From NCBI GenBank assembly GCA_964413195.1, contig CAYPRD010000001.1:27039-91038 (forward strand): 64,000 nucleotides of DNA. The letters run 5' to 3'. The notes under the pieces are model-generated. The model saw nothing but the letters and a program-made list of their open reading frames with translations. It made no database searches and was not told where the DNA came from. Source of the DNA: an uncultured Candidatus Peribacteria bacterium. Lineage in GTDB: Bacteria; Patescibacteriota; Gracilibacteria; BD1-5; JAGOOR01. Positions 1-64,000 of the stretch are shown here, one piece after another. Both the position numbers and the translations under genes were made by a program. How positions within the stretch are numbered: the first letter of the stretch is position 1; every line of letters begins with the position of its first letter.

Positions 1-649
1 CAAAGAGATGTGTGCTTGATTCTGTAAGAGGTAAATCAGTAAATGAGGTATTTGGGTGTTTTTCGATACGCTCCATAATGAGAGATCAGGTGCCAAAAAA
101 TGAATCAATTGTTATCCGTTGTTCAGAAAGAACCTCAAGAAAATGACGAAACTTCTCATGCATATGATGGGAAGCGTTTTGTTCTTCAAATGTATTACTC
201 CCAAAGAAACGTATCGTTCTCAGTGAGGAAGCACGAATGGTTGTCATCATATCGGTAAAAAGACTCTCGAGTTGTTCACCTTCATAAATACGAATTTCTG
301 GAAGAGAGAGGTCTTTGCGACTAATAGATTGGAGGAGTTCGAGGGTATTTTTTTTCTGAGATTCTAGGTATTGAACCTCCTGTTTTTTTTCTGTCAAAAG
401 GTTCTCCAATCCAGAAAAATCAGCCACAAAATACACTTTAACGCCCGTTTTTTGAGAGGAAACAATAAGTCATTTTTCCAGTAAAATGCCTAAAATTCTA
501 TAGGTTTTTGTTCGCTCAAATCCAGAACGTGCTGCAAGAATAGAGGCTGGCTGCGTTCCGAGTTCGCAGAGAAGCAAAAAGAGTGCTTGCTCTTCTTCTT
601 GTATACCGAGTGAAAAAAGGTATTTTTGTATTTTTTCTTGAATTTTCAT
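1..649 (-). CDS. TrmB-family winged-helix transcriptional regulator (C-terminal end runs off the window)
   Basis: ORFs 470-661 and 86-436 share a frame and are joined by in-frame TGA (470-472, 86-88). The frame stays open to position 1. The N-terminus MKIQEKIQKYLFSLGIQEEEQALFLLLCELGTQPASILAARSGFERTKTYRIL is a TrmB-type HTH. First ATG at 649. Confidence 0.6.
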
Positions 650-748
650 CGTTTTGTGCAAAAAAATGCACAGTAAATTTTATCTATAAATAGATAAAAA
701 TCAATATATTGTTTTTTATATTTTGACATATTTTATTTTTCTAGAAGA

Positions 749-2512
749 ATGGCTATGAAATTAAAAATGAAAAAAAATTGCCCCATTTCCAAAAAAAGCT
801 TTCTTATAACAGAAAATGAAAAAAAATTTATCGACCAAATTTCTCCTCAATTTTGTGGAAAAAAGTACCTCTTCCCTTTTCCAGAAATTTGCCCAGAAGA
901 AAGAGTCCGTATGCGTGTGCTTCATCGTAACGAACAGTATCTTTACAAGAATTCCTCAGCATTCACAGGAAAGCCACTCATATCACTCTATCGTCCTCAT
1001 ACGTGAATCAAAGTAGTCACACGCGAAGAGTGGTTTTCAGACACATGGGATGCTATCGAGTACGGAAAAGAATACACTCATGAGCAAGCATTTTTTCAAC
1101 AGTTCTCCACACTGCAAAAATCCATACCACGGGCCGCAACAGTAACAGTCAACAATGAAAATTCCGACTACACAACCGGGACCTGATACTGCAAAAATTG
1201 TTACCTCATTAACTCCTCTGAATACTGTGAAGATTGTTATTATTCAAAATTATTACAAAAGTGTAGGAATTGTATTGATACAAGCTATGCATTTGACTCA
1301 GAATATCTCTATGAATGCTTTAACTGTGAGAAATGCTTTCATTGCGAATACTGTATCAATACAACAAATAGTTCTGATTGTTTTTATTGTAAAAATTGTA
1401 TCGGTTGTCAGAATTGTTTTGGGAGCATAAATTTGAAAAATAAATCCTATTACTTCATGAATGAAAAATGTTCTCCTGAAGAGTACAAAAAGAAAATCCA
1501 ATCACTCTGACTATCAGACATAAAACAACGATCCCTCATCTGGTCTCGTTTCCGGGATTTTTTCAGAACTCAACCACACAAATACGCCAATATAACAAAC
1601 TCTGAGAATTGTACTGGGGATTTTATCATCAACTCTCGTAACTGCGAAGAATGCTATGATATCTCAGATTCGGATGCGTGTCAGTATGTACAGGTATGAG
1701 TAAAATGCCGATCACTTATCGATTGCTCAAATATGTACGTTAATCCAGAATTTTGTTATCAAACACTCGGAACTATAGAAGTGCACAACTGCCATTTTTG
1801 CCTCTATGTTTTTCATAGTCGAGATCTCCTCTATTGTGAACAATGTTTTTCTTGTAAAAGTTGCTTTTGATGTGTCGGGTTAAGAAATAAAGAATATTGC
1901 ATCCTCAATAAACAATATAAAAAGGAGGAATACGAGAAAAAAGTCATTGAAATAATTACCGATATGCAAAAAACCCATGAATGGGGTGTGTTTTTCCCAG
2001 CATGGATGTCACCCTTTGCATACAACGAATCGCTTGCGCAGGATTATTTTCCTCTTACATCAGAAAAAAATGAAGAAATAGGTGGAATTCCTGGAATATA
2101 TACCCGTACAGAAAATGGTCAGACTTATTTTTGGTACGAGAAAGAAAATTCTGAATTTGAGTGAACATGGTATGAGCCACTCCCCATCGATCAATATGAC
2201 GAAAAAAAAGTTGGTTACGATAGGGCTGCAAAAAATATACAAAACTGCCTCAGTGGAGTACTACGGTGCCAAGAAAGTGGGAGGCCATTTAAGATTATTC
2301 GACAAGAACTTGCCTTCTATATACAGCACTCGCTCCCCCTCCCTATTTTATGTCCAGATGCTCGGCATGCTCATCGTATGAAACTGAGAAATCCCAGGAA
2401 ACTTTACCCGGGCACGTGTGCAAAAACGGGAGAAAATCTACTTACCTCATATCCTCCAGGAAGTCCGGAAGTACTCTATAGTGAAAGGGCATTTCAGGAT
2501 TTACTAGAATAA
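749..2512 (+). CDS. cysteine-rich repeat protein, paralog A (587 aa in table 25; function unknown)
   Basis: The frame of ORF 749-1006 reads through 6 in-frame TGA to TAA at 2510-2512 and absorbs ORF 1964-2164. About 39 Cys lie in CxxC strings (YCKNCYLINSSEYCEDC, ECFNCEKCFHCEYC, DCFYCKNCIGCQNCFG), in two internally duplicated halves. A motif F.I...EL.FY....P.P..CP..R...R..RNP occurs near both termini. Paralog of 30723-32426. Confidence 0.7.
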
Positions 2513-2513
2513 T

Positions 2514-3311
2514 TTAGGAAAGATCGTAATGAGCTTCTTTCCCGAGGACTTTCGTAACAGAATTAACCTTTGGATCGTAATAGCTGATGAGGAGCTCAAT
2601 AAGTTCATCTTTGTTTAAGACTTGAGAACGAAGACCTACAAAATCTAGGCTTCATTTAATCATTCAGGCTTTTTCTGTGCAACGTTTTTTGAGATAATCA
2701 ACACGAGCAATGTTCCTACGAACTTCATCAGAAGTAACTGTTTGACTAATTCATCCAAAAAAACTTTTTACTATCTGAAACATGCTACGGGGAGACACAC
2801 TCTGATCATTAGTCTCATCATGAGGAATAATAATATAGAACTCTTTTTTCATGATCTGCGCGACATTTACGAGGTTCGTCAGAAACTCAATATATCGTTC
2901 CGACTGGTCTCGAAGAAGAGGATTTTTCTGTCCCGCAGTGAGTGCCTTCAGTCTATTGAGGTATCACTCAATATCGACCTTTAGAGACCGGATCAATATC
3001 TGTATTGGGAATTGTAGGGCATTGAGAAAATGCTGGAAAGAATAAATAATAGAATCCTGCTCTTCTTCTGATTTGAGGAGAAAATTCACCGCTTCCACCC
3101 GCAAAACAATTCTTGCTGAACCATCTTTCATGATAACAATATTGTCACGTACTTCAGAAAAAGGAAGATATCGCTGGGTGGAATCATCCTCATGAGTGAC
3201 ACGATCGGGTCTGACGGATTTCAGGGTAGTATCCGGCGAACTCTTTGAAACAGCATCAGTAATCTGAGTAGTTTTTTTATTGTTAAGAATCTTTGAGAAA
3301 GGATTTTTCAT
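2514..3311 (-). CDS. VirB4/TraC-like N-terminal domain protein, no ATPase domain (265 aa)
   Basis: ORF 2964-3311 extends through 4 in-frame TGA to TAA at 2514-2516. The segment RYLPFSEVRDNIVIMKDGSARIVLRVEAVNFLLKSEEEQDSIIYSFQHFLNALQFPIQILIRSLKVDIE resembles, from memory, the N-terminal region of CPR/Gram-positive VirB4-like proteins. No Walker A follows. It starts 1 nt after the PrgI-like gene stop. Confidence 0.5.
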
Positions 3312-3312
3312 A

Positions 3313-3732
3313 CTATATCTTTTTTAGATTTTCTTGGAGTTTCTTAGTGTCTTTTTTTCGTTTTTTCTCGGTTTCCACACTCTCATCAGAACGAACATAT
3401 CCAATTTTGAGAGCCGAAAAGCTGTCTACACCCCTTACCCAGACTCTTCCGGTATTGTTGGATCAGTTACCATTGATTTTATACCGAGCTAAATTTAGAA
3501 GGAATGGGAGAAACGTCATCTCATGAGTACGAAATCTTGCTACTACGAAAAATACCCCTACTATCAGCACACACACAATAAAAAGAGGAGTATTTGGGAC
3601 AGTTCATTGAAATTTATTGAAAATACCAAACGCCAGAATCAGTCCTACTATAATAATCCCCATTTGACGCAAACTAAGGTCAAAAATAATGGTATCTTCG
3701 TTCTCAATTTGTATAGGAATCTTGTACTGCAT
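3313..3732 (-). CDS. PrgI-family (VirB3-like) small membrane protein
   Basis: ATG at 3732 runs to TAG at 3313-3315 with two in-frame TGA, so it is missing from the standard-code track. MQYKIPIQIENEDTIIFDLSLRQMGIIIVGLILAFGIF matches the PrgI N-terminal pattern (Q.P..IE.EDkI.g.LsLRQ followed by two TM helices). Confidence 0.55.
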
Positions 3733-3752: not shown

Positions 3753-4925
3753 TTGCAAAAAAAGCAAAGATTGTATGATCTTTTTATGCCAAAAACCCTC
3801 GTTCTTCATGACACTTTCCTCTACCGGGGAGGTGGAGAACGTCTTGTACTTATGATCGCCAATGCACTGGAGGCAGATATCGCTTCCGGATTTTTCAGTT
3901 CTGGAAGCTACAATCTCCGTGATCAGGGCTTCAAATGAGCCATGATATCGCTTATGCCAACATTTTTTTTGCACGAATTTCTTTGGATGCCCAAAAAAAT
4001 GGCTTTTATATGCAAAAATGGTCTTAGGCATTTTGGATTAAAATGGGCTTTTTCCGTAAATGCAAAAAAATTAGCACAAAATTACGATACCATCATTCTG
4101 AGCGGTGATTGTCTCTCCTCAATAAAACATTTTAGAGGGAAAAACATCATATATTATTGTCATACCATCCCCCGATATCTTTTTGATCAAAGAGAACAAT
4201 ATGAGAAAAAAGTTCCAAGAATTATACTCCCCCTCTACCAATGGTTAACATCTGTTTTCCGAAAAGAATATCTCAAAAATTTATGACTCATACAACGCCT
4301 TATCACGAACTCAAAAAACACACAAAAACGAATAAAAACCTATACACATCAGGATGCCCAGATACTCTATCCTCCCGTTGATACAAGTTTCTTTTCCTCT
4401 CCAGAGAAAACAATTCAAAAAAACTACTTCCTATCATTTGCACGGCTTTCATCTATCAAACGAGTTGATCGAATTGTCACAGCTTTTCAAAAAATGCCCC
4501 ACGAACAGCTCATTATCACTTACTGAGAAAATGACCCAGAAAAAACAACCATCGAAGCCATGACCAGATGATATAAAAATATTACCATGCGAAAGTCTCC
4601 TACAGACCAAGAATTACGTGATCTCATACGCGGAGCTCTTGCCACTATTTATGTACCCGTGGATGAAGATTTTGGCATGAGTCCAGTAGAATCTATGGCC
4701 TGCTGAACACCTGTGATAGGAGTAAACGAGGGTGGCCTACGTGAAAGTATCATGGATGGAAAAACAGGCATACTCATCGATCCTCGTTGTTTGCCAGAGG
4801 ATATACAAAATGCCGTTCAGAGGATTCAAACAGTCTGAAATATGTCTCCGGATTGTATAAAAAGAAGTTATGATTTTAGTCTCCAAAAATTTGAACAAGA
4901 ACTCAAAAAATTACTTCAAAACTAA
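3753..4925 (+). CDS. glycosyltransferase, GT4-like (GT-B fold)
   Basis: ORFs 3753-3938 and 3942-4286 plus the downstream same frame are joined by TGA and end at TAA 4923-4925. GT4 C-terminal motif [31 protein letters not shown], with that G encoded by TGA. Also LIITY-G-ENDPE. Confidence 0.8.
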
Positions 4926-6184: not shown

Positions 6185-6532
6185 ATGCGCCATACAAAAA
6201 CACGAGAAGATATACTGCAATTTTTGGAAGAAAATAAAGGCTCTTTTACTCCATATGAACTCGCAGATCTTACAAAAATAAATCCTGTAACTGTCTATAG
6301 GGTTTTAGAATTCCTCCGAACAAAATGACTGGTACACCATATTCCTTCTCTCGGAAAATGGACAGCGTGTCACTCGCATGATAAGAATACAGATCATGGA
6401 TTTTTAATTTGCAAAAAATGTCATTCTGTAGAAGAATTCGTTTTACCTCATCAATGCATACATCCTAAGGATTTCAAGTGTGAAGAACACATAACAGAGG
6501 TCTTTGGTGTGTGCAAAAATTGTCTCTCATAA
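6185..6532 (+). CDS. zur: Fur-family metalloregulator (Zur-like)
   Basis: MRHTKTREDILQFLEENKGSFTPYELADLTKINPVTVYRVLEFLRTK-G-LVHHI, then CHSHD...CKKCHSVEEF...CKNC metal sites. One in-frame TGA. Sits directly upstream of znuACB. Confidence 0.75.
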
Positions 6533-6536
6533 TTTT

Positions 6537-7454
6537 ATGAAAAAAATCTTCTCTACTATCTTTATTGGACTTCTGATATCTAGTTGCACCTTTTCACAAG
6601 AAAATAGAGATACTCAAAAAATACAAGTTTCTGCTTCTTTTTACCCGATATATTTCATCGCAAAATCTATTGGTGGCGATCAAGCAAGGGTGGTCAATAT
6701 AACTCCTATTGGAGTTGAACCCCACGAATATGAACCCAGTATTCAATCCAAAAAAAACATATTCGAAAGTCAGCTTTTTTTGATAAATGGTATTATGGAA
6801 CCCTGGGGAGAAAAGCTCATTCCAGAGATTAAAAAAAGAAATGTTACAGTTATAAAATTAATAGACAATATACCCAAAATTGAAGCAGGAAAAAACAATC
6901 ACTCTGAAGATCATAATCAAGAATATAGCTACGATCCTCACATTTGGCTATCCCCAAAAACAGTCCTCATTATGATAGACAGTGTGCTTGCTGGTTTTAA
7001 AATATCTGATCCAAATAATACTCCTTATTATGAATCAAACACAGAAAAATTAAAAAATGAAATACAAAAATTGGACATACAATTCCAAGAAAAGCTTGCC
7101 ACATGCCGTCTACGAGATATCGTAACTTCTCATGCTGCATTCGGATATCTTGCTCGAGATTACGGCCTCCGTCAAATCCCGATTGCCGGACTATCACCAG
7201 AAATGGAACCTTCCGCAATTGATATTGCCCATATAGTAAAAATAGTGAGAGAAAAGTCGATACCGGTGATATTTACTGAAAAACTCATCTCTCCTCGATT
7301 CGCCGAAACAATTACACGAGAGACCGGGACGCGCACTCTCACCCTCAATGCTCTCGAATGACTTACGAAAGAAGAAATAGATGCTGGAAAAGATTTCATC
7401 AGCATCATGCAAGAGAACCTCTTACATCTCTCTCAAGGACTTTTATGCCAATAA
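6537..7454 (+). CDS. znuA: metal (Zn/Mn) ABC transporter substrate-binding lipoprotein, ZnuA/TroA family
   Basis: ORF 6504-7361 with an in-frame ATG at 6537. Lipobox LLISSC. DPHIWLSP motif. Continues through TGA 7359-7361 to TAA 7452-7454. Confidence 0.85.
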
Positions 7455-8110
7455 ACGAAAAACAATTACTCGTCCAGCTCAAAAACATTTCCTTCTGATA
7501 TACTCCAGGAGAATATATACTCAAAAATATAAACCTTGATATATACACACGTGAGACTCTCATAATTACATGACCAAATGGAAGTGGGAAAACAACGCTC
7601 ATAAAGATATTGTGTGGATTATTGCCACCAAGTTCGGGAAGTGTTTCTTGGACACAAAAAAGAGCAACAGGCCTCATAGGATATGTCGGACAAGATGCTT
7701 CTCATTTCACCAATACCATACCCCTCTCCGTGTATGAATTCGTATCTTACAGTTCTATGGCTCACAGGAATGATCACCACATCCATAATGATTGTTGTTA
7801 CGACACGGTAGAGTACGCTTTACAGCATGTCGGTCTCGAAGATCTCAGAGAAACAGATATTCGTAAACTTTCCTGATGACAGAAGCAACGTCTCTGCATC
7901 GCTCGAGCACTTGTAGGTGATCCCAAAATACTCATCATGGACGAACCTCTCAATTGAGTAGATCAGAAAACACAAGAAAATATACTCGACCTTCTCCAAC
8001 ACCTGAACGCAGTTCATAATTTGAGCATTATCACGGTCTCTCATGATGTGTGATTATTGAAAAGGTTTTCAAGGCACATGGCCCTCTTATCTGAAACTAT
8101 TAATTCATAA
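7445..8110 (+). CDS. znuC: metal ABC transporter ATP-binding protein
   Basis: Walker A is IIT-G-PNGSGKTTL (TGA 7571-7573). The ABC signature LSGGQKQR is encoded CTT TCC TGA TGA CAG (7868-7882). Walker B is ILIMDEPLN-G-VD. The start overlaps the znuA end by 10 nt. Confidence 0.9.
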
Positions 8111-9713: not shown

Positions 9714-11003
9714 TTATAAAATACCATTTTTCTGACATTCTTCAGTCGTGGTCATACCAAGAAGTACTTTTGCCTGAGCATCTTGCTCAAGAGTAATATA
9801 ATAATCCTTTCTTGTTTTTCGGAGTATATCGGTGTGCGTAGCACCGAGTCGTATAGCGTCGCGAATTTCATCTGTTATACGGAAAACTTCATAAATTCCT
9901 ATACGTCAGCTATACCCAGTAAATCAACACGCCTCACATCATTTTCCCTTCTGTGGAAAACTCTCATGGGAACCATAGAGCTCAAGAAGTTCCTTGTCTT
10001 TTTCGGAAAAACTATACGCATGGGGTTGTCAACATTTATGGCAAATTCTACGAACAAGTCTTTGCGAGATAATGAGATCAAGAGACGCTGCGACATCAAA
10101 AGCAGAGACACCCATATTTTCAAGACGTTCCAGTGTTTCGAGCGCACTTTTTGTATGGAGCGTAGAGAGAACAAGATGTCCTGTCAAAGACGCCTGTATA
10201 GCCGTACGAGCCGTATCAAGATCACGAATTTCACCTATCATAATGACATCTGGATCATGCCGAAGTACCGAACGAACTCCGAGTGAAAACGTATATCCCT
10301 GTCGTTCATTTATCTCAGACTGCAGGATTCCTGGAATTTGATATTCGATAGGATCCTCGAGAGTAATAATTTTGTCTTCAGGGTTTCTAAGAGTATCGAT
10401 GAGAGTATAGAGCGTGGTGGTTTTACCAGATCCAGTTGGACCAGTAACCAATATCATTCATTGTTTTTTCTGAACTGAGCTGAGTATCAGAGATTTTTGG
10501 GTACCAATGATTCCTAAACTATCCAGTGTCATAACTGTCTGAGATAAATCAAGGATACGGCAAACAATACTCTCTCCATATCTGGTTGGCATGACAGAAA
10601 CACGTACATCTATTTCTGCCTCATGACCATCCCTTCAAAAACGAAATTTCCCATCCTGCGGAACATCGTGAATGTTGAGTTTGAGATTTGATCGGTATTT
10701 CATCCGCTCGACTATGGCGGCATGATCATGACTACTGAGACTTCCAACAGACTCAAGTGATCCATCGATACGAAAACGTATTTGAGAATCATTTTCATGA
10801 AGCTCAAGATGGATATCAGATGCGTGGAGCTCTATCGCTCAGCGAACCAGTGCTCATAGTGCTATATCAGAGTCCTGACGATCGAGCGCTACTTCAATTT
10901 CATCCAAAATATGCCGAAACTCTGGTCTATGCAAATCACCAACAGTTTTTTGTTTATGGAGGATGTTTTCTAGATTTTTTATGTTCTCTAAAACTTGATT
11001 CAT
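9714..11003 (-). CDS. pilB: type II/IV secretion ATPase, PilB/GspE family (short form, 429 aa)
   Basis: ORF 10029-10457 (ILVTGPTGSGKTTTLY Walker A, RHDPDVIMIGEIRD) is extended through TGA. C-terminal zinc motif G-CEAC-G-FTGYS-G-RIGIYEV has three TGA glycines. ATG at 11003, TAA at 9714-9716. Confidence 0.85.
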
Positions 11004-11059: not shown

Positions 11060-12010
11060 ATGCCTTCAGAAAAAATCACACATACATTTTTTACCACCGT
11101 TTTTGCTGATCTCAGAAATATCAGAGGAAAAGTTATACTCTGATGTTCTGGCTGACCAGATTCTATGGCCTTACTCGATATCGCACGACAGGCATGTTGA
11201 TGAGAAAATATCATTGTAGCGCATATCCACCATGGGCTACGAAAAACGGCGGACAAAGACCAGGATATTGTGAAGTGTTACTGTGAAAAACACAATATAT
11301 CGTTCGTGACAAAAAATGTAGATATAAAAAAGGAGGCAAAAAAAACAAAAAAAACTCTTGAAGAGTGCGCACGGGATGTAAGAAAAGAATTTTTCCTTGA
11401 ACTCAGAAAAAAACATCAAGCTCGGTATATTCTGACTGCCCACCATGCTAATGATCAAGAAGAGACGATTTTATATAGAATTATCAAGGGATCTGGACTG
11501 CATTGATTGCGGGGTATAGAAAAAATAACAGAAGAATATTTCCGACCATTTTTACCATTCAAAAAAAAAGAAATTCTTGTATACGTTCAACAAGAAAAAA
11601 TCCCATTCTGACTTGATGAAACAAATGACGATGTAGAAATACCACGGAATCGTATACGAAAAAAGATTCTTCCCGAAATAGAAAAAATCAATCCCCAGTA
11701 TGGGAAATCATTCCTAAAAATAGCTGAGCAGTCAACCGAATTAAAAAATAGTTTCCTGGTTTTTTTTAGCGATGTCCTACAGAAAGGTCACTTTGATCTC
11801 AATTGGTACTATCAACTCCCTCTCTGATTTCAAAAGGAGCTTCTCCACACAATATATACCACCATACACGGATCTTCTCATGGCATATCCCACAGTCTCA
11901 TCATAGAATTGATACGATTTTTATCGACTAGAAGAGGAGGGGTGAAAGAAATCAAAAATATGCGACTTGAGAAGAAACAGGGAAAGGTTTTTATCTCACA
12001 TGTGCACTAA
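11060..12010 (+). CDS. tilS: tRNA(Ile)-lysidine synthase
   Basis: PP-loop IL-G-CSG-G-PDSMALLD with TGA at 11141-11143 and 11153-11155. ORF 11270-11506 carries the LTAHHANDQEETILYRIIKGSG motif. TAA at 12008-12010. Confidence 0.85.
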
Positions 12011-13127
12011 TTCTTTCCTTTAAAATATCTACTCACTCACCAGTTTTTGCTGAAACAAAAAGAGGGTCAAGATGTTCATATTTTTCTTGGAGGAATATTC
12101 TTCTTTCTTTATCACAACGATCAATCTGGTTAAAGATATACCATCGTGGCTGGGTCGCACCAATACGTTCCAAGATAGCATCCGTAACATCTATGCGATC
12201 CTGGATATGACTATCACTCGCATCAATAGTGTGAAGGAGGATATCGCACGACAAAGACTCTTCGAGGGTGCTGGAAAATGCATCAACTAGTTCTGGAGGG
12301 AGATCTCGAATAAATCCGATTGTATCATAAATAAGAACTTCTGGTGCATGACGGAAATTACCAGATTCATCCGCATATAAATGTGATGGAAATCTTAATT
12401 TTCATACCGATGTCCCCAGAGTTGCAAAAAGTTCGTCTTGCTCATAAACTCATTTATCCGTTAAGATATTCATAAGGGTAGATTTCCCCGCATTGGTGTA
12501 TCATACGATGCCAAAAGTCCACATATTATTTCGTTTTCGGGAAGATCGATTTTGAGTACGTACTTTTCTGTAGTGATCAATCTTTCAGCGTATTTTCCTC
12601 TCCATTTCACGTAAATGTCGTCTCATAATCTCAGTATTTGTTTCCCCGATACCCTTATTGGAAGTTCCCCCACCACCACCCTGTCTATCCATTTCCATGC
12701 CCATGCCAAATATACGGGGACCCATGTGTTTTATGGACGCAAGTTGGATCTGCAATTTTGATTCGGGAGTTTTTGCGTGAAGCTGAAAAATTTTGAGTAT
12801 TAAATCCACTCGATCCCACACCTGTAATCGCATCTTTCTTTTTTCTACTTCCTGAATAATGGTAAAAATTTGTCTTGCTTTGAGTATGTTGCCAATGATA
12901 AGAGTATCTGCTCAAAACTGAGAAGCATAGTCCAGAACCTCATCCAATTTTCAACGTCAAACATATGTTTCATAATCCGGTTCGTCCCGTTTCTGAAATG
13001 TCTCCAAGATCACGATACCCTTGTAGGTAGCTACCAGTTTTTGTAATTCTACCAAACGGTCATCAAGACTGTATTCAGCCAGGAGTGTCGGGTTTTTTGG
13101 TGCTATATCAAGAAGGATGGCTCGCAT
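11991..13127 (-). CDS. hflX: GTPase HflX
   Basis: ORFs 12033-12254 and 12585-12833 are in the same frame. G1 motif FGIV-G-YTNAGKSTLMN. HflX N-domain HLREMERKI. ATG 13127, TAA 11991-11993. The 3' end overlaps tilS by 20 nt (convergent). Confidence 0.85.
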
Positions 13128-13682: not shown

Positions 13683-14159
13683 ATGCACAAAAAAATACTC
13701 CCTTCTCTTATTCTCGGACTCTTATGTGCTATTGGTACACATGTAGTACTTTTCACAGACCAATGACATAGGCTACAGAGTGCCATAGTAGAAAGTGATA
13801 CAACTCGACCTGCTGAAGCAGAGCTCGTATACGAAAAAGGTCTGATTTTAGTGCGATGAAATATCAAAGCTACCCAAGTAATACACTTAACTGGAGAAAT
13901 ACACTACGATCCCGAAAGCATAACTCTTTGAGAAGTTCAGTCATGACGTGGAAAAGTAACTACTCAAAAGACGGTCTCTGGAATACGTTTTGAGCTCACC
14001 TTTGACCAACCAGAAACAATTACGCTCGGACATAATCTTTTATCATTCCCCGTGACTCTACAAACAGGAGAGGAACATGCAGTTAATCTCAGTAACGTGC
14101 TCCTCTCAATGAATGACGGTACCACACATCTCTCAACCGCTGGAACAGGAGAATTTTAA
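13683..14159 (+). CDS. secreted protein or lipoprotein, hypothetical (158 aa)
   Basis: Signal peptide MHKKILPSLILGLLCAIG. Frame open through 4 TGA to TAA 14157-14159, with beta-rich composition. The antisense ORF 13673-13867 is judged spurious. Confidence 0.5.
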
Positions 14160-14803
14160 TGCGTCATATCCAAAAGCAAATCAGGCTGAAGGAGCTTTGA
14201 TGGGCATTCATGTGTAGTTATTTTTGGATTGAAAAAATTTTCCAATGCATTTTTCTTACCCTCACCAACAACACAGAGGCATGAATATGCGATATCTCAG
14301 AGAGAAGATGGGGAAAGAGTAATTCTTTGGGGAGGATTTTTTGGCGCATGATCAATAGCAACAAAACCCTTCTCTTTTGAATCTAGAACTGGATGGTGTG
14401 GAAAAAGCGATGCGGTATGTCCGTCAGGCCCCATTCAAAAGAAACCAATATCAAGAGTAGGAATTTTTCAAGAATACCTCTTACCATCATCATCTTTCTC
14501 AGGGAAAATAGCTATCATTTTCACCCCCAGACGTTTCTCAAGTGGCAGAAGAAAAAGTTCTTGTATCCGTCGATCATTTCTTTCTTCTGGAGAACAATGT
14601 ATGCGTTCATCAGTCACACACCAACGAAGTCGATCCTGAGCAATTGCCGACCACTCATTCGACAAAACAAGGGATGCATACCATACATCAAATGACGTAC
14701 CCCCTCAGAGACCTACGAAGACATGCTCCTGATTCTTTAGTAAGGTATGAAGAGAAGAAAAGAACCACGAAGTTACGTCATCAAAAGAAATCACAATTTT
14801 CAT
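14156..14803 (-). CDS. pgl: 6-phosphogluconolactonase
   Basis: ORF 14468-14665 is extended. Signature FF-G-MGPDGHTASLFP and N-terminal VGL-G-GGTSF, with the marked G residues encoded by TGA. ATG 14803, TAA 14156-14158 (4-nt overlap with the previous gene). Confidence 0.8.
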
Positions 14804-14852
14804 AATTCTATTGTCTTGCCTTCAGGATAAAAATCAAGATACTCACTCCTAT

Positions 14853-17509: not shown

Positions 17510-18451
17510 ATGTCCTGGATTAACAACTTCATACAAAAACAACAACCCATCGTTGCTCTCGCTCCTATGGACTGATATTGTGATAGTGCATTTCGTTCGA
17601 TTTGTAAAACTGTGGCACCAGATATTGTTGTTTTTTCAGAATTTTATAGTGCCGATGGGCTGCATCATAACCCTGAACTTGCTAAAAAAGTTCTGACCCA
17701 TAACTCCATAGAACATCCTCTCGTTTTTCAAATATTTGGAAATACGCCAGAGATATTTCTTTCTGCTGGAAAAATCATTGCTTCATATGGAGCACAGGGT
17801 ATAGATATCAATATGGGGTGTCCGGCAAAAAAAGTCGTAAAATGTTGATACGGTTCAGGACTCATGATTGACAGAGAACGTGCCATGAAGATCGTCAATA
17901 TTTTAGCAGAAAATCTCTCCATACCAATATCCGTGAAGACGCGTCTCTGATGGAACGATGCGCAGGACTTGGTAGAATTTTGAAAGTCTCTCGTCCAAGC
18001 AGGAGCTCAGCTCATCACTGTTCATGGCAGAACATACCAACAAGAATACCGGGGAGAGGCTAACTGGGATCCTATCTATGAACTACAGAAACAGGTCAAA
18101 ATTCCCGTCTTGTGAAATGGAGATTGCCAATCATACGAAGATGGCATGAATAGGAGAAAAAAATTAGGAGGCTTTATGATCGGTCGTGGGGCACTTGGAA
18201 ATCCATGGTGTTTTTTACCAGATAATTATTCACCATCATGGAATGAAAGAATACATACGATGAGTCAACACATGAATATGATGAAGGATTCAAAATGAGA
18301 ACATCGGGCATGTTTGGAGATTCGAAAACATTTCACTCATTATCTTCATAGCTTTGAGGGGGTGAAAGAATACCGTAGTCGACTCGCTCACGTGCAGAGT
18401 GTCGAAGAAGCACAAAAAATTCTCTACGAATTATCCCAAATGAGCATATAA
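17510..18451 (+). CDS. dus: tRNA-dihydrouridine synthase
   Basis: ALAPMD-G-YCDSAFR, IDINMGCPAKKV, and VL-G-NGDC with those G residues encoded by TGA. ORF 17612-17848 is the central fragment. TAA at 18449-18451. Confidence 0.85.
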
Positions 18452-18459
18452 TATTTTTC

Positions 18460-18975
18460 ATGAATTCAGCTCATATACACATGATCATCGTGCATCTCCC
18501 TATTGTTGGGGCGACTCTGTCCATCATACCCATGATGTGGGGATGGGTAAGAAATAATCATGAAATTCAGAAAATTGGACTTTCTCTGTTAGGCATAAGT
18601 CTTCTAGGTATGCCTATAGCAATATTTTCGGGTGAAGCAACTTTTGAGAAATTTATCACTGGAACCATCTCACCTGACATAGATACTGGAGGTGCTCACT
18701 ATGCTTTTCTGCATTATCAAGCAGCGGAATTTGTATCAAAAATAGGATATTTTGCGCTGATACTTGTCTGTTGGCAAATTTTTCTCGGAAGAAAAATAAG
18801 ACACTACAAAAAGCATCTTTTCCTCACCACATTAATTCTCAATGCTGTTCTCATTATATGATTTGGATATGTTTGATATCTTGGAGGAAAAATTCGTCAT
18901 CCTGAAGTACGAACAGAGACATACCAGCCTATAACCTCTGGAACCATTGCAGAATCGGAAAAAACTCTACAATAG
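18460..18975 (+). CDS. membrane protein, tentatively DUF2231-like
   Basis: ORF 18460-18861 extends through 2 TGA to TAG 18973-18975. HMIIVHLPIVGATLSIIP resembles the HFPIAL motif of DUF2231. 4 TM segments. Confidence 0.5.
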
Positions 18976-26321: not shown

Positions 26322-26379
26322 AGCTCAAATATTATACAAAGAAAAATAAAATTTGTATGACCCTATATTTTTGTACAAT

Positions 26380-34480: not shown

Positions 34481-34483
34481 AAA

Positions 34484-41714: not shown

Positions 41715-41833
41715 ATAACTAAGAGACTGAGGATATAATCGATTATTAGAGATAGTATAAAGAGAAGTAAAGAATCTGACGACAAAAAGCTTGACTCTAA
41801 AAAACAAGAGTTCCATTATATTTTTCGTTTTAT

Positions 41834-49682: not shown

Positions 49683-51446
49683 ATGCACCGAACGCACACT
49701 TGCTGACAACTCAATGAGCACCATATAGATAACACCGTGACACTCGCAGGATGGGTCGCTCACCGGAGAGATCATGGAGGTGTCATATTTATCGATTTAC
49801 GTGATCGGTATGGCTTAACACAGATTGTTTTTGATCCAAATGCTTTTCCAGAAGCGGCAAAAAATGGCGATATGGTACGGTCAGAATGGGTGATAAAAAT
49901 AGAATGACATGTTCGTGCCCGACCAGCATGACAAGCAAATCCAAATATGGATACTGGGGCGATAGAAGTACTGGTACACAACTGTACCATCCTGAGTCGT
50001 GCAAAAACTCCTCCATTTGAAATAATGGATTCCACCAACGATGTCAATGAAGAAATTCGCTATAAATATCGTTATCTTGATCTCCGAAGAGATGTCCAAC
50101 GCAAAAAAATTGAATTCAGAGCAACCGTTAATACCTACACGCGGAAATGGTTCCAAGATCGAGGGTTCCTCGAGGTGCAAACGCCTCTTTTCACGGTCAG
50201 CTCTCCTGAAGGAGCACGAGACTATCTCATCCCATCACGTCTCCATCCGGGAAAATTCTATGCTCTCCCCCAAGCACCCCAACAGTATAAACAACTTCTC
50301 ATGGTGGCATGAGTCGATAAATATTTCCAAATCGCGCCCTGTTTTCGTGATGAGGATCCGAGAGCCGATAGACATAGTTGCGAATTTTATCAAATCGATT
50401 GTGAAATGAGTTTTGTGCAACAGGAAGATGTCCTGGATATCGCAGAAATATTTGTAAAAGATCTCGTCACCACTGTAGTTCCAGAAAAGAAATTAGCACA
50501 AAAAGTATTCACTCGACTCACACACAAAAATGCACTCGATATGTATGGCTCGGATAAACCGGATTTACGATTTGACTGTCACTTTGAAGACTTCACACAT
50601 GATTTCGCGCATTCATGATTTGCAGTATTTTCTGATACAATCAAAAATGGCGGAGTGGTAAAAGCCTTTAAACTGAGCGGTGTATCCATGTCACGAAAAG
50701 ATATAGATGAAATAACCCAAATCGCTCTCGATAATGGAGCAAAGGGGCTCGCCTATATTCTCTATGAGACAGAAGGTCCCAAAAGTCCGATACTCAAATT
50801 CTTAACACAAGAGGAATTGCAAGCACTCGAGACACGACTCAAGCCTGAAGTGGGTGATATGATATTTTTTGGAGCCGATAAACGTACAACAGTCAATAAA
50901 GTTTTAGGAATCCTCAGAAATGAGCTCAAGCACCGATATAATTTAGCCGATCAAAATAGTCTTTGCTTCACATGGGTAACAGATTTTCCTATGTTTGAGA
51001 AAGATGAAAAAACTGGAAAACTGGATTTTGAGCACAATCCATTTAGTGCCATCAATGCAACCATTGAAGACCTCCGTACGATGAATCCTCTTGATGTATA
51101 TGGGTTTCAGTACGATCTCTCTCTCAATGGGTATGAAATACTCTCTGGCTCAATCCGTAACCACGATATTGAGCTTCTCGTAGAAGCATTTCGTATGGTT
51201 GGGAGAAGTGAAGAAGAAGTAAAAACGAAATTTGGCGGCATGTATGAAGCGTTTCAGTATGGTGTCCCTCCCCATGGATGATTCGCATTTGGAGTTGATA
51301 GGCTCATTATGATTCTCATGAACGAGGAGAATATTCGCGATATTTACGCCTTCCCAAAGTCTGGAAAAGCCCAAGATGCTATGATGAACGCACCCAGCTG
51401 CGTCGATGAAGAAAGTCTTCGAGAGTTACACATAAAACTGAGATAG
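49683..51446 (+). CDS. aspS: aspartate--tRNA ligase
   Basis: MHRTHTC-G-QL (TGA 49704-49706), [56 protein letters not shown], and [11 protein letters not shown]. ORFs 49947-50312 and 50655-51281 are in the same frame. TAG at 51444-51446. Confidence 0.9.
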
Positions 51447-53537: not shown

Positions 53538-56510
53538 ATGCAAAAAAACAAGTATTTTTATCAGACGATTCTCGGATGTATGATCTTCTGTTTTGGATCA
53601 GCATTTGCGTATACAAGTGCCGATTGTGAAAATGCATCTCGTCTGGCAAGCAATGGTATCATCACCTATCAATCATCTTGCCCAGGCTATGCACTCGATC
53701 GCAACATTACTCGAGCCGAAGTAGCTGCTGTAGGTCTCAAAATCGCAGAAACATGTGGAGCACTATATGAAACATGGAATACCTGTGAAGGTATTTATTG
53801 TGATGTTACCTCTACCGATCCAAACACATGGGCATGTCGAGCAGCAGAAACACTCGCACGAAATGGTATCATCTCCCTCAACACTCAATCAGATGGATTT
53901 AATCATTTTTACCCAACAAGAAATATTACACGAGCAGAGGCTTTAGCAATTATTCTCAAGAGTGGTAAACTAGATTTTCAGAACTCCACCTACAATGATT
54001 GGCGTTTCAATGGGACAGGGGCAAACAGTTGGCAAAAACCTCTCATGCAATATGCATTTAATAGTGGCTATATAACTTCTATAAATGGTTTCTGACCAAA
54101 TCTTCTTGCTCGCCGCCATGAAGTATTTGGATACGCAGAACAAGTGCTCAGAACATGTGGTGGAGGTGGTGGAAATACTTCATCATGTGGTATCGGTCAA
54201 TATTGGTCTGGAAATACATGTTACAGCTGTTCTGGAGCACCAGCAAACGCATATTATACCGGTAGAAATTCATGTGAATGGACCTGTAACAGTGGATACT
54301 ACAAAAGTGGAAGTAGCTGTGTGAGCAATAATAACAATTACAATCCTTACGGGACATGTCCTGCATGACAATACTGGGCTGGAACCTGTATTTCATGTTT
54401 ATCTGCTCCAGCAAATGCATACTACACAACCTACAACTCATGTGCTTGGACGTGTAATAACGGATACTACAGAAGCGGAGACACGTGCGTGAGCAGTGGT
54501 GGCTGATATGGATCATGTAGTGTAGGGCAATATTGGAATGGATATAGCTGTAGTTTTTGTGGGAACCTCCCTACAAATGCGTATTATAATAGCCAAAACA
54601 GTTGTGAATGGACCTGTAACAATGGATATTATAAGAGTGGTAATAGTTGTATAAGCACGTATAACACCGCTTGTGGCGTCGGACAATATTCATCTGGAAA
54701 CACCTGTTTCTCTTGTAGTTCTGCTCCAGCAAATGCATACTATACGACACAAAATTCATGTGAATGGACTTGTAATAGTGGATATTATAAACTCGGAAGC
54801 AGCTGTGTCAGTTTCAACAATCCATCAACATGTGGAGTCGGACAATACTCGTCTGGGAATAGTTGTTATTCTTGTAACACACGTCCAACCAATGCCTACT
54901 ACACACGAGAAAATTCATGTGAATGGACTTGTAACAGTGGGTACTACCGAGATGGAAATTTTTGTGTCCAAAATTATCAAAACTGTGGTATTGGACAATA
55001 CCTCACTGGAAACATGTGTCTTGGTTGTACCAACAAGCCATCATACGCATACTATACAACCGTTGGATCATGTGAATGGACCTGTGAAAGTGGGTATTAT
55101 AGAAATGGAAACACCTGTACACCTTCGTTTAATCAAAACTGTAGTATCGGACAATATCTGGTAGGAAACAGTTGTGTTTCATGTGGCAATGCTCCTTGGA
55201 ACTCAACCTATACAACCGTTGGATCATGTGAATGGACCTGTAACAGTGGATACTACAGAAATGGGGATAGTTGTATACAAAATGTCGTCAATTGTGGTAT
55301 CGGGCAATACCAACTCGGTAATACGTGTCATAGCTGTACAGGCTTACCTGCAAATGCCTATTACACGACCACCGGCAGCTGTGCATGGACATGTAGTTCA
55401 AACTACTACGCATCAGGAAATCAGTGTTTCCCATACGTAACAAATTGTTGAGTAGGGCAATATCTTTCTGGCAATGCCTGTGTATCATGTACTGGGCTGC
55501 CAACAAACGCATACTATACCACACAGAATTCATGTAGTTGGTCTTGTAGTAATGGCTATACCCAGAGCGGATGATCATGTGTTCCAAATACGTATAATTT
55601 CTACGCATGGTACACGAGTAGTTATGGGACATGTTCAGCAAGCTGTGGTGGAGGAAACCAATACCGCACTGTAGAATGTCGAAATAATCTTGGAATAACT
55701 GTAGCTGATGCGTTTTGTTCTGCAACAGCAAAACCAGTTACAACACAATCATGTAATACGCAGGCATGTACTAATTATGCGTGGTATACAGGAAATTATG
55801 TGACATGCTCAGCAAGCTGTGGTGGAGGAAACCAATATCGAACCGTGGAATGCCGCGATGGAAATGGAATGACGGTTTCTGATAGTTATTGTTCTGCAAC
55901 AGCAAAACCAGTTACAACACAATCGTGTAATACGCAGGCATGTCAAACAGTTACTTATGGATGGTTTGCTGGAAGTTATGGTTCTTGTTCTGCTGTATGT
56001 GGTGGAGGAAATCAATACCGCCCCGTAGAGTGCCGAACAAACACAGGAAACACCGTTGCTGATAGTTATTGTGCACATATTACTCGTCCAACCAATATCC
56101 AATCATGTAATACGCAGGCATGTACTAATTATGCGTGGTATACAGGAAGCTATGGGACATGTTCAGCAAGCTGTGGTGGAGGAAATCAATACCGCACCGT
56201 AGAATGTCGAAATAATCTTGGAATAACTGTAGCTGATGCATATTGTACTGGGACAGCAAAACCAATCAATGCACAATCATGTAATAGTCACGCCTGTGCT
56301 GTGGCGACACAATGTAGTGGATTTCGATTTTGTACAACAGACAACTTTGGTGAGTGGTGCGAGACACCAGAATGTCCCGTAGGATGCACCGCCGTTCTTT
56401 CTGATGCAACAGATAACTACGCAGATATTCGATCCACAAATAATGGACGAAGTATGAAAGGGAAAAATTGTGATGCCGGAACCGAAACCCTCAAAGTATT
56501 TTGTCGATAA
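53538..56510 (+). CDS. secreted SLH-domain protein with 9 Cys-rich (ephrin-receptor/furin-like) repeats and 4 ADAMTS-type thrombospondin type-1 repeats (990 aa)
   Basis: ORFs 53466-54095, 54144-54368, 55014-55451 and 55800-56510 are all in one frame and joined by TGA. Signal peptide ILGCMIFCFGSAFA. SLH-like segments NITRAEVAAVGLKIA and WACRAAETLARNGII...NITRAEALAIILK. Repeats CG.GQY..GN.C..C...P.NAYYT...SCEWTCNSGYY..G..C. TSRs W(Y/F)..SYG.CSA.CGGGNQYR.VECR...G..V.D..C....KP...QSCN.QAC. Confidence 0.8.
54186..55580 (+). repeat. nine tandem ~50-aa cysteine-rich repeats (coding)
   Basis: GQY-containing units: CGIGQYWSGNTC, CPA-G-QYWAGTC, CSVGQYWNGYSC, CGVGQYSSGNTC, CGVGQYSSGNSC, CGIGQYLTGNMC, CSIGQYLVGNSC, CGIGQYQLGNTC, C-G-VGQYLSGNAC. 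Six Cys per unit. Confidence 0.8.
55602..56296 (+). repeat. four tandem thrombospondin type-1-like repeats (coding), with near-identical DNA between units 1 and 4
   Basis: Segments 55623-55711 and 56151-56239 (89 nt each) differ at 2 positions. A 49-nt linker (CAATCATGTAATACGCAGGCATGTACTAATTATGCGTGGTATACAGGAA) occurs identically at about 55747 and 56100. Confidence 0.8.
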
Positions 56511-58348: not shown

Positions 58349-58423
58349 AGGGTGGTAGTACAATGGTTAGTATAGGGATCTCCAAAGTCCTTGATCTCAG
58401 TTCGATTCTGAGCCGCCCTGCCA
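58349..58423 (+). tRNA. tRNA-Trp (anticodon CCA)
   Basis: AGGGTGGTAGTACAATGGTTAGTATAGGGATCTCCAAAGTCCTTGATCTCAGTTCGATTCTGAGCCGCCCTGCCA. Cloverleaf folded by hand, anticodon loop CTCCAAA, discriminator G, encoded CCA. The body is like E. coli tRNA-Trp. Confidence 0.9.
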
Positions 58424-60033: not shown

Positions 60034-61971
60034 ATGGCCATAATTTGCAAAATTCATTATGCGTTATCAAAAGCAGGTCCCCTGCTCTCTCAAATACACT
60101 ACCCCGCTGATATGCGAGAGAAATTCTCTCTCGACGATCTCCCCACTATATCCCAGGAAGTCCGACAATACATCATCGATGTGATCTCAGAAATTGGGAA
60201 TAGTCATTTCGGCGCGAGCCTCGGTGTAGTAGAATTAACCGTTGCTCTACACTACGTCTTCAACACTCCGGACGATCAGATCGTATGGGATGTATGACAT
60301 CAGGCATACGGTCACAAAATTCTTACTGGGCGCAGAGAAGTCTTTCACACCAATAGGACAAAAGGAGGTATTTCTGGTTTCCCAAAAAGAAGTGAAAGCC
60401 AGTATGATACCTTCGGCGTTGGGCATTCCTCAACTTCTATTTCTGCTGCTCTTGGGATGGCTGTTGCTAGTCACTACAGTGGAGTCAAAAACAGACAGCA
60501 TATCGCCGTTATAGGAGATGGGGCGATGACCGCTGGTCTTGCATTTGAATGACTCCATAATGCAGGATCTCAAAACGCAAATCTCTTGGTCATACTCAAT
60601 GATAACAATATGAGTATCGACCCGAACGTTGGTGCTCTGCGTGACTATTTCACGAAAATCACGACCTCTCACACATTCAATTTTGTTCGTGAAGAAATCC
60701 GTGATCTCTTTGATAAAATCGGCAAACTCTGAACCGTAACAAAAGAATTTCTCGAACACACAGAGCAGGGCCTCAAAGGAATCCTGATGAAAAATAGTAA
60801 TCTTTTTGAATCACTCCATTTTCGTTATTTTGGGCCCGTTGATGGACACGATGTTGTCGGTCTTGCAAAAATACTTCATGATCTCAAGCATATTCCTGGA
60901 CCAAAACTTCTGCACGTGCTCACAAAAAAATGAAAAGGCTACAAATATTCAGAAGAAGGAAACGAAACAACCTGGCATGCGCCTGGCGTATTTAACAAAG
61001 AAACAGGAGAAATTTTAAAACCTATTTCTGCTACTCCTCAACCTCCGAAATATCAGGATGTTTTTGGTCATACCATTGTCGAACTCGCTGAAAAAAATCC
61101 AAAAATCATGGGGATCACTCCCGCGATGCCATCAGGCTCATCGCTCAATATCATGATGAAAGCGATGCCAGAAAGAGCCTTTGATGTCGGTATAGCTGAA
61201 CAACATGCAGTCACATTTTCAGCAGGTCTTGCAACGCAAGGCATGATACCATTCTGCAACATCTATTCGTCTTTTATGCAAAGAGCATACGATCAAGTCA
61301 TTCACGATGTGGCTCTTCAAAATCTCAATGTCATTTTTTGTCTCGATCGAGGAGGTCTCGTAGGAGCTGATGGAGCAACACATCATGGAGCCTACGATTT
61401 AGCCTACATGCGCTGCATCCCAAATATGATTGTCACAGCACCCATGAATGAATCAGAACTTCGCAATCTTATGTACACTTCTCAAAAAGATAATATGGGG
61501 CCATTTTCTATCCGCTATCCTCGTGGCAATGGTGTCATGATTGACTGGAAAACACCTTTTGAAATCATAGAAATCGGAACAGGTCGATGTATTACAGAGG
61601 GGGAAGAAGTTGCTCTTCTCTCGATTGGGCACCCAGGAAATTTTGCGCAAAAAGCATGTGCCGAATTAGCAAAAGAAAATATCTTCCCCGCTCACTACGA
61701 CCTACGTTTTGTGAAACCACTGGACGAGAAACTTCTCCATACTATTTTCCAGAAATTCAAAAAAATCATCACTATAGAAGATGGGTGTATTATGGGTGGC
61801 ATGGGCTCTGCTGTACTCGAATTTATGGTCAATAATAATTATTCAGCAGAAGTTATTCGTCTTGGTATACCCGACACATACATACATCACGGAACTCCCG
61901 CGGAGCTCTATGCGGACTGCGGGTTTGATGGTGCAGGAATAATGAAGGCTGTAAAAACCCTCTCGATATAG
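60034..61971 (+). CDS. dxs: 1-deoxy-D-xylulose-5-phosphate synthase
   Basis: ORFs 60034-60297 and 61108-61971 are in the same frame and joined through [69 protein letters not shown]. Confidence 0.9.
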
Positions 61972-61977
61972 GTATTT

Positions 61978-63498
61978 TTGAGAGGAGAGATATTGCATTC
62001 TGATGCGTTTCTCTATACTCTCAGCGTGTCCTACGCCTCTCCTGTCATTCTCAGTTTCGATAAAGCCAGTTTCTCCTTTAATGATGGGAAACGAGTCATT
62101 CTCAATGAAGCCAGTTTCTCCATTCGAGAAAATACCAAGATTACTATCATGGGTCAAAATGGTGCCGGGAAGTCTACGATGTTCAAACTCATTATGGGAG
62201 AACTCAAGCTCCAGTCAGGCAAAATGAACCTCGTCCCGGGAAAAACTGTTGCCATAGCGCGTCAGGTTATCCCTCGAGATCAGATGTATCTCACAGTCAA
62301 GGAATATTTTGCAACAGCATTTAAACATCCAGACAATAAACTCGAACGAAAAATTGCCGATGTCCTCTCAGAAGTAAATCTCGTAGCCCCTCTTGACAAA
62401 ACACTCAAACAATTTTCAGGTGGACAGCAGGCTCGTCTCCTCCTCGCACACGCCCTCATCCAGGAACCAGATATTCTCCTCCTGGATGAACCAACCAATA
62501 ATCTCGATACTGCCGGAATAGGTCATCTTATTAGTTTTATCCTTGGGTACGAAAAAACAGTGGTGGTTATCTCGCATGATGCGGATTTTCTCAATATGTT
62601 TACGGATGGTGTCCTCTACCTCAATGTCCAGAGACAAACGGTCGAACAATACTGGGGAAACTACTATGATGTCATCGAACAAATCGCTGCTCAAATCGAG
62701 AAAGAACGTCAGCAAAATGCCCGCATGGAGAAAGAAATCCAGGATTCAAAGGATAAAATCAATTTCTTTAGCAACAAAGGAGGGAAAATGCGAAAACTTG
62801 CCAGCAAGATGCGAGATGATGTCGCTGAAGCAGAAGAGAACAAAGTCGCTGTACGCAAAGACGACAAAACGATTCCAAAATTTATCATAGAATTCCCAAA
62901 CCTTATTGGACCAATCGTACAAATCAACAGCCTCAGTCTCATGAGCCCACTCACACACGACGTCGTCCATGTTCCATTTTCTCTTACCGTAAAAAAACGC
63001 GAGCGCTATATTCTCAAGGGGCCAAATGGTATCGGTAAATCAACCCTCCTCAAACGACTCACGAGCGGAAAAGATGAAGATGCCGTTATCACACCAGAAG
63101 TCTCTATCGGCTACTATAGTCAGGACTTTGATGCACTCGATATGAATATGACAGTGTGGGATTCTCTCCACTCAGCCACGGACGAATGTACCGATCAAGA
63201 CGTCTATAAAGTCGCAGCACAATTTCTTCTCACGGGAGATCTTCTCAAAAATCCCATTTACGCTCTCTCAGAAGGCCAAAAAGGACTCCTCTGCTATGCT
63301 CGATTTGTTCTTCAAAAACCACACCTCCTTATCCTCGACGAACCAACAAACCATATCAACTTCCGTCATCTACCTGTCATCGCTGAAGCACTCAACGACT
63401 ATCAAGGTGGTATTATCATGGTAAGTCATGATGACACATTTGTGGAGAAAATTGATAACCTCGAAGAGATTGATTTGAAGAGGCTTCTCGGAATCTAA
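61978..63498 (+). CDS. ABC-F family ATPase (two ABC cassettes, no TM domain)
   Basis: Intact ORF. GQNGAGKSTMFKL, FSGGQQARLLLA, LLLDEPTNNLD, GPNGIGKSTLLKRL, LSEGQKGLL, LILDEPTNHIN. Start uncertain (TTG 61978 or GTG 62026). Confidence 0.85.
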   Translation: MRGEILHSDAFLYTLSVSYASPVILSFDKASFSFNDGKRVILNEASFSIRENTKITIMGQNGAGKSTMFKLIMGELKLQSGKMNLVPGKTVAIARQVIPRDQMYLTVKEYFATAFKHPDNKLERKIADVLSEVNLVAPLDKTLKQFSGGQQARLLLAHALIQEPDILLLDEPTNNLDTAGIGHLISFILGYEKTVVVISHDADFLNMFTDGVLYLNVQRQTVEQYWGNYYDVIEQIAAQIEKERQQNARMEKEIQDSKDKINFFSNKGGKMRKLASKMRDDVAEAEENKVAVRKDDKTIPKFIIEFPNLIGPIVQINSLSLMSPLTHDVVHVPFSLTVKKRERYILKGPNGIGKSTLLKRLTSGKDEDAVITPEVSIGYYSQDFDALDMNMTVWDSLHSATDECTDQDVYKVAAQFLLTGDLLKNPIYALSEGQKGLLCYARFVLQKPHLLILDEPTNHINFRHLPVIAEALNDYQGGIIMVSHDDTFVEKIDNLEEIDLKRLLGI

Positions 63499-63510
63499 TT
63501 CATATTCATT

Positions 63511-63957
63511 ATGACTCACATTGGCACTCGCGACGAATACAAAAAAATCCTCTGAGAAAGGAAAATGATTGGAAAAGAAGGATGTCCTTTTTGTAATTTA
63601 GAAGAACAGAAAGATATGATCCTCTGGAGAGGAAAACACTGGTTCATTATCCAAAATAAATTCCCCTACACAGGAACAAAAGATCACATTATGGCCGTCC
63701 CCTATGAACATCACATACATGCCAGTGAATTTGCTCCAGAAGTGTGGGCAGAGATGGAGAGCATTCATTCATGGATAAAAGAATTTTATGGCGAAAGAGG
63801 ATATTTTTCCTTTACCCGAGAAACGATAAATGATGGTGACAGAGATACGAGGAGTATCGAACACTACCACACCCATTTTTGCGTTGGAAGGCTTCAAGGA
63901 AAATATCTCAGAAATATGCTCCAAAATCAGGGATTTCCGATTGAGCAGGGTTTATAG
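63511..63957 (+). CDS. HIT-family (histidine triad) protein
   Basis: ORF 63565-63957 extends upstream through one TGA to ATG 63511. HxHxHx motif EHYHTHF, plus an N-terminal CPFC. Confidence 0.7.
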
Positions 63958-64000
63958 GTTTACTTTTCCTCATTTACCTATACATTTCAAATTATGAATA

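Follow-up and report, generated by a model that had tools for sequence, protein, structure and literature searches.

Which genetic code does the 64,000-nucleotide (nt) stretch of DNA analysed here (hereafter the window) follow, and what, in particular, does UGA mean in its genes? A preliminary description made from the letters alone had proposed that the window uses translation table 25, in which UGA encodes glycine (Gly), and that its genes appear fragmented whenever they are read with the standard code. We counted stop-to-stop open reading frames (ORFs) of at least 300 amino acids (aa) under four sets of stop codons. With TAA, TAG and TGA all acting as stops, the window contained 6 such ORFs, which covered 10.8% of its length, versus 41 ORFs covering 79.0% when TGA was read as sense, confirming that the standard code breaks up its genes. 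Freeing TAG instead produced 7 ORFs (13.0% of the window) and freeing TAA produced 10 (16.8%); because these alternatives yield just 13–17%, the gain in coverage is specific to TGA. UGA is a sense codon in the window, which has a G+C content of 39.3%. Taking all of the evidence below together, we consider it nearly certain that the window, chromosomal DNA assigned through its best named homologues to the BD1-5/Gracilibacteria group (GTDB class JAEDAM01, within the Patescibacteria or candidate phyla radiation (CPR)), uses table 25, with UGA as an ordinary Gly codon, UAA and UAG as the only stops, and every other codon, including CGA and CGG, standard.

A greedy selection of ORFs with TGA as sense gave a list of 56 genes spanning 92% of the window and containing 272 in-frame TGAs. 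One entry, a minus-strand ORF of 556 codons at 61702–63369, proved to be the antisense shadow of an ABC-F ATPase gene without TGA on the plus strand (62149–63498) and was replaced; long spurious antisense ORFs of this kind can arise once TGA is read through. The corrected gene set held 264 in-frame TGAs among 19,661 codons (13.4 per 1000), together with 1,126 GGN and 222 TGG codons, which puts TGA at about 19% of Gly codons, and at least one TGA was present in 49 of the 56 genes. Complete genes ended in TAA (39 genes) or TAG (16 genes), and none in TGA. That all genes end in TAA or TAG, as claimed earlier, follows in part from the way the ORFs were defined, although the lengths of homologues and the even spread of TGA along genes do back it. 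By successive tenths of gene length, in-frame TGAs numbered 28, 33, 31, 23, 27, 29, 26, 24, 22 and 21; there was no enrichment toward the 3′ end, the codons were not concentrated at C-termini, and the ends of the ORFs matched those of their homologues. Pfam domains were also full-length across the TGAs, including ABC_tran, ABC-3, T2SSE, the PP-loop family and the HflX domains, as well as G6PD, Dus, trigger factor, class II aminoacyl-tRNA synthetase and adh_short.

Such a pattern could in principle come from genes that obey the standard code and are simply broken, whether as pseudogenes, through sequencing errors, or by carrying many selenocysteine (Sec) or read-through sites, and nearly all genes in the window do look interrupted under table 11. 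However, the genes that contain the 264 in-frame TGAs contain no in-frame TAA or TAG, their frames remain intact through all of the TGAs, and they are full-length relative to homologues. Independent relatives show the same pattern of TGAs, and the TGAs fall at Gly columns of alignments rather than at cysteine or Sec columns, as described below. Because random decay would yield TAA, TAG and frameshifts as well, we regard this explanation as refuted, with a vanishingly small probability of being correct.

Which amino acid, then, does UGA specify? We aligned window genes with orthologues from the standard-code genome of E. coli K-12 MG1655, using five 50-kb regions that contain orthologues of 15–16 window genes, and wrote X at each TGA. 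Gly stood opposite 32 of the 65 aligned TGAs and tryptophan (Trp) opposite none (0/65), against a background of 8.0% Gly among the aligned E. coli residues (binomial p = 1.7e-19). The other partners were dispersed: Ser, Ala and Arg accounted for 4 each, gaps for 4, and Asp and Thr for 3 each, with the remainder scattered. As yardsticks from the same alignments, 66% of GGN codons stood opposite Gly and 33% of TGG codons opposite Trp. A tally of all 64 codons against E. coli indicated that the other 61 sense codons keep their standard partners, with noise from low counts or conservative exchanges at AGC, ATC, TCG and TGC. UGA means Gly, not Trp, in agreement with the preliminary description; the Trp-aligned pattern that would speak against it was not seen in this tabulation. 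The stronger wording that TGAs lie on invariant glycines was only half right, as roughly half of them occupy conserved Gly columns and the rest fall on variable columns. Both kinds occur in a PilB/GspE-type ATPase with 8 TGAs (9714–11003, minus strand). Comparison with solved GspE/PilF structures placed Gly, in at least one structure, at 4 of the 8 TGA columns (before Walker A and in G-CE, C-G and Y(R/K)-G-R, the last three of which belong to the zinc motif), and the other four columns are variable, the structures carrying N/K, E, L/Y and K there. The zinc motif itself reads C-X-Q..K-X-CEAC-X-FTGYS-X-R, where X is TGA.

The motif examples put forward previously hold up as in-frame TGAs at Gly positions, and the coordinates quoted for their TGAs were all correct. 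In a ZnuC-like ABC ATPase (7445–8110, plus), 4 of 6 TGAs are opposite E. coli Gly; the TGA at 7571–7573 lies in Walker A (IT-X-PNGSGKT), and those at 7874–7879, within the TCC TGA TGA CAG of 7871–7882, supply both glycines of LSGGQ (LS-X-X-Q). GroEL (41882–43519, minus) has 3 of 4 TGAs opposite E. coli Gly, with TGAs in LF-X-DAG and LE-X-V (TCA on the forward strand at 43493–43495 and 43463–43465) and another inside the GGM tail, GGGMG-X-MGMM. For aspartyl-tRNA synthetase (AspRS; 49683–51446, plus), 4 of 6 TGAs are opposite E. coli Gly and the one at 49704–49706 gives HTC-G-QL, and for the HflX GTPase (11991–13127, minus) the count is 5 of 8. A short-chain dehydrogenase (29372–30046, minus) uses TGA for the first Gly of T-G-ASSGLG (LT-X-ASSGLG), an S-adenosylmethionine-dependent methyltransferase (30062–30715, minus) uses it for the Gly in LDL-G-CGPG (complement of 30539–30541), and MraY (40653–41816, minus) has a TGA in DGLDGLAG-G. 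TilS (11060–12010, plus) needed a small correction. Two TGAs had been assigned to its PP-loop; the one at 11153–11155 is indeed the second Gly of SGGxDS (SG-X-PDS), whereas the one at 11141–11143 lies two residues upstream of the motif. That upstream TGA presumably faces an Ala when the motif is lined up with that of E. coli TilS, and one Ala is found among the E. coli residues that face TilS TGAs.

We then asked how the codon behaves among closer relatives. A protein search with AspRS, for which the best 120 matches were considered, recovered metagenome proteins without an organism name at up to 76–77% identity. Nearly all of the named matches in this set were 'Candidatus Gracilibacteria bacterium' (58–65% identity), two bore broader labels ('bacterium' and 'Patescibacteria group bacterium'), and none was labelled Absconditabacteria. 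The proposed assignment of the window to its lineage rests on these best named homologues. The NCBI label 'Gracilibacteria' covers some table-11 genomes too, and the clade that uses table 25 corresponds to GTDB class JAEDAM01, comprising the orders BD1-5 and Absconditabacterales (bioRxiv 10.64898/2026.05.24.727570). Two relatives, L006 (ENA ERZ22666180, 462 kb) and L008 (JGI 3300028581), were syntenic with approximately 39,400–60,000 of the window, which allowed codons to be compared directly. Of 98 window TGAs, 52 were matched by GGN in the orthologues of these two relatives, 17 by TGA and 0 by TGG; of 112 TGAs in the relatives, 64 were matched by GGN in the window, 17 by TGA and 0 by TGG. 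Window TGG codons paired with TGG 84 times and with TGA 0 times. Given this pattern of exchange, TGA behaves as a synonym of GGN but not of TGG. UGA and GGN are interchangeable over evolutionary time.

These comparisons also bear on table 4, in which the same codon has been captured by Trp, as in Mycoplasmatales and several insect endosymbionts (Hodgkinia, Nasuia and Zinderia use this code as well). Table 4 would account for TGA being clearly sense, and the relatives' proteins in public collections do hold W at TGA positions, pipelines defaulting to this table. Against it stand the absence of Trp opposite any of the 65 TGAs, compared with 33% for TGG, the lack of any exchange between TGA and TGG in the relatives, and the presence of TGA where a motif demands Gly (LSGGQ, Walker A, SGGxDS and TGxxxGxG). 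In addition, the tRNA-Trp gene of the window (58349–58423, plus), which is found at the same site after tsf in both L006 and L008, has the anticodon CCA in all three; this anticodon reads UGG alone and so counts against table 4. We consider table 4 refuted by the column and codon-exchange tests, and it is extremely unlikely to apply to the window, where UGA is read as Gly. The route to table 4 is the same as that to table 25, namely loss of release factor 2 (RF2) and acquisition of a new tRNA with a UCA anticodon. As a separate observation, the AspRS sequences of the two relatives in a public protein collection (L006 10001–11761 and L008 10001–11767; P0003 and P0006) have W at every TGA; this results from translation with table 4, which places Gly-to-Trp errors in the database proteins of the lineage.

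A further alternative combines UGA as Gly with CGA and CGG as Trp. This extended code was predicted by Shulgina & Eddy (PMC8629427) for Absconditabacteria (SR1), with CGG as Trp in some Gracilibacteria. Reading UGA as Gly is common to the window and this sister lineage, but in the window CGA and CGG are abundant arginine codons: they occur at 114 and 37 per 10,000 codons, respectively, and stand opposite E. coli Arg in 37 of 74 (CGA) and 14 of 21 (CGG) cases and never opposite Trp. Because both codons are abundant and Arg-aligned, plain table 25 applies and the extended code is refuted for the window; we give it next to no chance.

How would UGA be decoded as Gly? In the mechanism that we favour for table 25 in the window, which draws on the lineage and the literature, UGA would be read by a dedicated tRNA-Gly(UCA) that keeps the identity elements recognized by glycyl-tRNA synthetase (GlyRS), G1:C72, C2:G71, G3:C70 and U73. 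This tRNA would be charged by the single-chain class II GlyRS encoded at 27820–29349 (minus), which has a class II core and an HGTP_anticodon domain. RF2 would be absent, so that no termination occurs at UGA, and UAA and UAG would both be handled by RF1. In published work, a tRNA-Gly(UCA) gene is expected in genomes with reassigned UGA (PMC8629427), this tRNA has divergent D and anticodon arms with the GlyRS identity elements kept (PMC4695839), and prfB was undetected in any available BD1-5 genome, with prfA present (Sieber et al., PMC6851277).

We searched for such tRNAs with a pattern that combined the anticodon UCA with the Gly identity elements (after Shulgina & Eddy). A strict form of the pattern, which permits a spacing of 28–31 nt from G3 to U33, against 32 in the common family, produced 11 matches in GTDB genomes, one of them labelled Gracilibacteria (L013). 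A relaxed form applied to metagenome contigs revealed one conserved tRNA(UCA) family, which accounted for 71 of 120 among the matches listed. Its members are 76 nt long plus CCA, GCGGGGGTAACATAAAAGAGTGAGTGTACTAAGGCTTCAACCCTTGGGTGTGCGAGTTCAAACCTCGTCCCCCGCT-CCA, with G1C2G3/C70G71C72/U73 and a D-loop of 11 nt, and they fit the published description of tRNA-Gly(UCA) (PMC4695839). On the contigs carrying this tRNA, the median share covered by ORFs of 200 aa or more rose from 0.06 to 0.76 when TGA was read as sense, and TGA was opposite E. coli Gly in 143 of 274 cases and opposite Trp in 3 of 274. In the loci scanned, the tRNA was often in tandem with tRNA-Gly(GCC) or tRNA-Arg(GCG), and the surrounding synteny was variable. 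Among the matches listed, none to the relaxed pattern lay on the L006 or L008 contigs.

Several observations weigh against the assignment of the window to table 25 or against the mechanism just outlined. No tRNA with a UCA anticodon is present in the 64-kb window, where Rfam at its gathering threshold detected three tRNAs alone: tRNA-Trp, and tRNA-Glu(CUC) and tRNA-Lys(CUU), which are grouped with rplK at 34384–35042 (minus). A class-I release factor motif (GGQHVN) was likewise absent from every frame of the window, which is a small part of the genome. The tRNA(UCA) loci shared at most 47% identity with window proteins, and because of this low best identity the 76-nt tRNA supports the code without being tied to the window's genome or to its 76%-identical relatives. 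Finally, Gly was opposite just 49% of TGAs, versus 58–69% for the GGN codons. The figure of 49% fits the placement of many TGAs at less constrained sites, and some decoding ambiguity is compatible with it.

The tRNA searches also returned genes outside the 76-nt family. The GTDB match labelled Gracilibacteria, L013 ('Candidatus Gracilibacteria bacterium' PL25b_bin.48), carries a different, 77-nt tRNA(UCA) with glycine identity at 4485–4561. Its locus has two long ORFs, which by eye resemble a 491-aa piece of isoleucyl-tRNA synthetase and a 456-aa glutamine synthetase. Neither has an in-frame TGA, and UGA usage may be very low in the L013 lineage. UCA tRNAs with glycine acceptor identity were also found in metagenome-assembled genomes (MAGs) of lineages that are not known to recode UGA, namely Thalassotalea, Anaerolineaceae and Alphaproteobacteria (L014 2860–2933, L011 16–90, L018 153–226 and L066). 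The Thalassotalea tRNA lies between tRNA-Tyr and tRNA-Thr, a site that glyT occupies in the thrU-tyrU-glyT-thrT operon of E. coli, and the UCA tRNAs of these lineages may represent naturally occurring opal suppressors of the glyT type or else variants that arose in assembly. A glycine-like family of 72 nt occurred on low-GC contigs (L034, L051, L058, L091, L104, L106, L110 and L132); its anticodon loop apparently has 6 nt (CTTCAA, with stem halves TCAGC and GCTGA). One Dehalococcoidia MAG (L019, 597–4838) packs 31 tRNA genes and a transfer-messenger RNA into ~4.3 kb.

Usage of TGA differed among the genes of the window. In eight translation and chaperone genes it contributed 8.0% of the Gly codons, versus 20.8% in the others (Fisher p = 5.8e-6), and rpsB, rplK, groES and the ABC-F gene had zero TGA. 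A codon that depends on a minor tRNA would be depleted in just this way. UGA is a major Gly codon of the lineage, at ~19% of the total; we think it distinctly unlikely that its 2.6-fold depletion reflects a real decoding cost or ambiguity, such as U34 wobble onto UGG, or, alternatively, that the lineage decodes UGA with a tRNA other than the 76-nt family. Under mixed decoding, UGA would stand mainly for Gly but would sometimes be taken as Trp through wobble, or would still end certain genes. An anticodon with U34 has the potential to pair with UGG as well, an ambiguity noted in PMC8629427, and the lower TGA share in translation and chaperone genes may point to a cost. However, any codon read by a rare tRNA is likewise avoided in highly expressed genes, no gene's homology stops at a TGA, the TGAs are evenly spread along genes, and TGG and TGA never exchange. 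We judge mixed decoding to be very unlikely.

The recoding of UGA to Gly in the window is already known biology. Campbell et al. and Rinke et al. reportedly described table 25, with UGA as Gly, in both Gracilibacteria/BD1-5 and Absconditabacteria/SR1 in 2013. UGA as Gly in these two groups, along with identity rules for tRNA-Gly(UCA), is documented in PMC8629427, and proteomic data validated the assignment in Gracilibacteria, according to the summary in PMC6851277 of Hanke et al. 2014 (PMC4032931). The window resembles table-25 Gracilibacteria/BD1-5 in having UGA as a sense codon aligned with Gly, TAA and TAG as its only stops, a low G+C content (39%), CPR-like gene content, and Gracilibacteria as its nearest named homologues; ORF coverage, the E. 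coli columns, codon exchange and tRNA-Trp(CCA) all favour table 25, as originally claimed. It differs from known table-25 systems in no respect of kind; its best AspRS match is 77% identical, and TGA accounts for ~19% of Gly codons. Its G+C content of 39% exceeds the 28.9% that Sieber et al. (PMC6851277) report for their closed BD1-5 genome.

Several N-terminal ORF extensions in the first gene list were spurious and masked neighbouring genes, such that picking the longest ORF missed three frames, at 6495–7454, 14156–14848 and 18379–18975. The first (plus) encodes a ZnuA-like solute-binding protein, named by eye from its sequence, and completes a znuA-znuC-znuB cluster; the second (minus) is by eye a 6-phosphogluconolactonase/NagB-like protein with F-X-MGPDGHTASLFP; and the third (plus) appears by eye to be a small membrane protein.

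A few other genes of the window deserve mention. The plus-strand gene at 53538–56510 encodes a secreted, cysteine-rich repeat protein of 990 aa that carries four thrombospondin type 1 repeats (TSP1_ADAMTS, E = 1.3e-44) and matches SLH weakly, an architecture unusual for a bacterium; identity to its homologues is 50% in L006 and 37% in L008. Two more cysteine-rich proteins of ~570–590 aa without a Pfam match are encoded at 749–2512 (plus) and 30723–32426 (minus), and these are apparently related, judging by eye from a similar C-terminal region (RQELAF...LPLP...KLRNPR.L). The 1157-aa product of 22914–26387 (minus), whose gene contains 26 in-frame TGAs, has staphylococcal nuclease, PKD and lamin-tail domains and is probably an extracellular or surface nuclease. 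At 2514–3732 (minus), a PrgI-family membrane protein (3313–3732) adjoins an unassigned 265-aa protein, and the two may belong to a type IV secretion-like system.

In practice, every call of a gene, a domain, a 'pseudogene' or a 'fragment' in the window hinges on table 25, as table 11 shatters the genes and table 4 places Trp at Gly positions, corrupting, for example, LSGGQ and Walker A. In biological terms, the window adds another representative to a lineage known since 2013 to be recoded, and the finding matters for annotation only.

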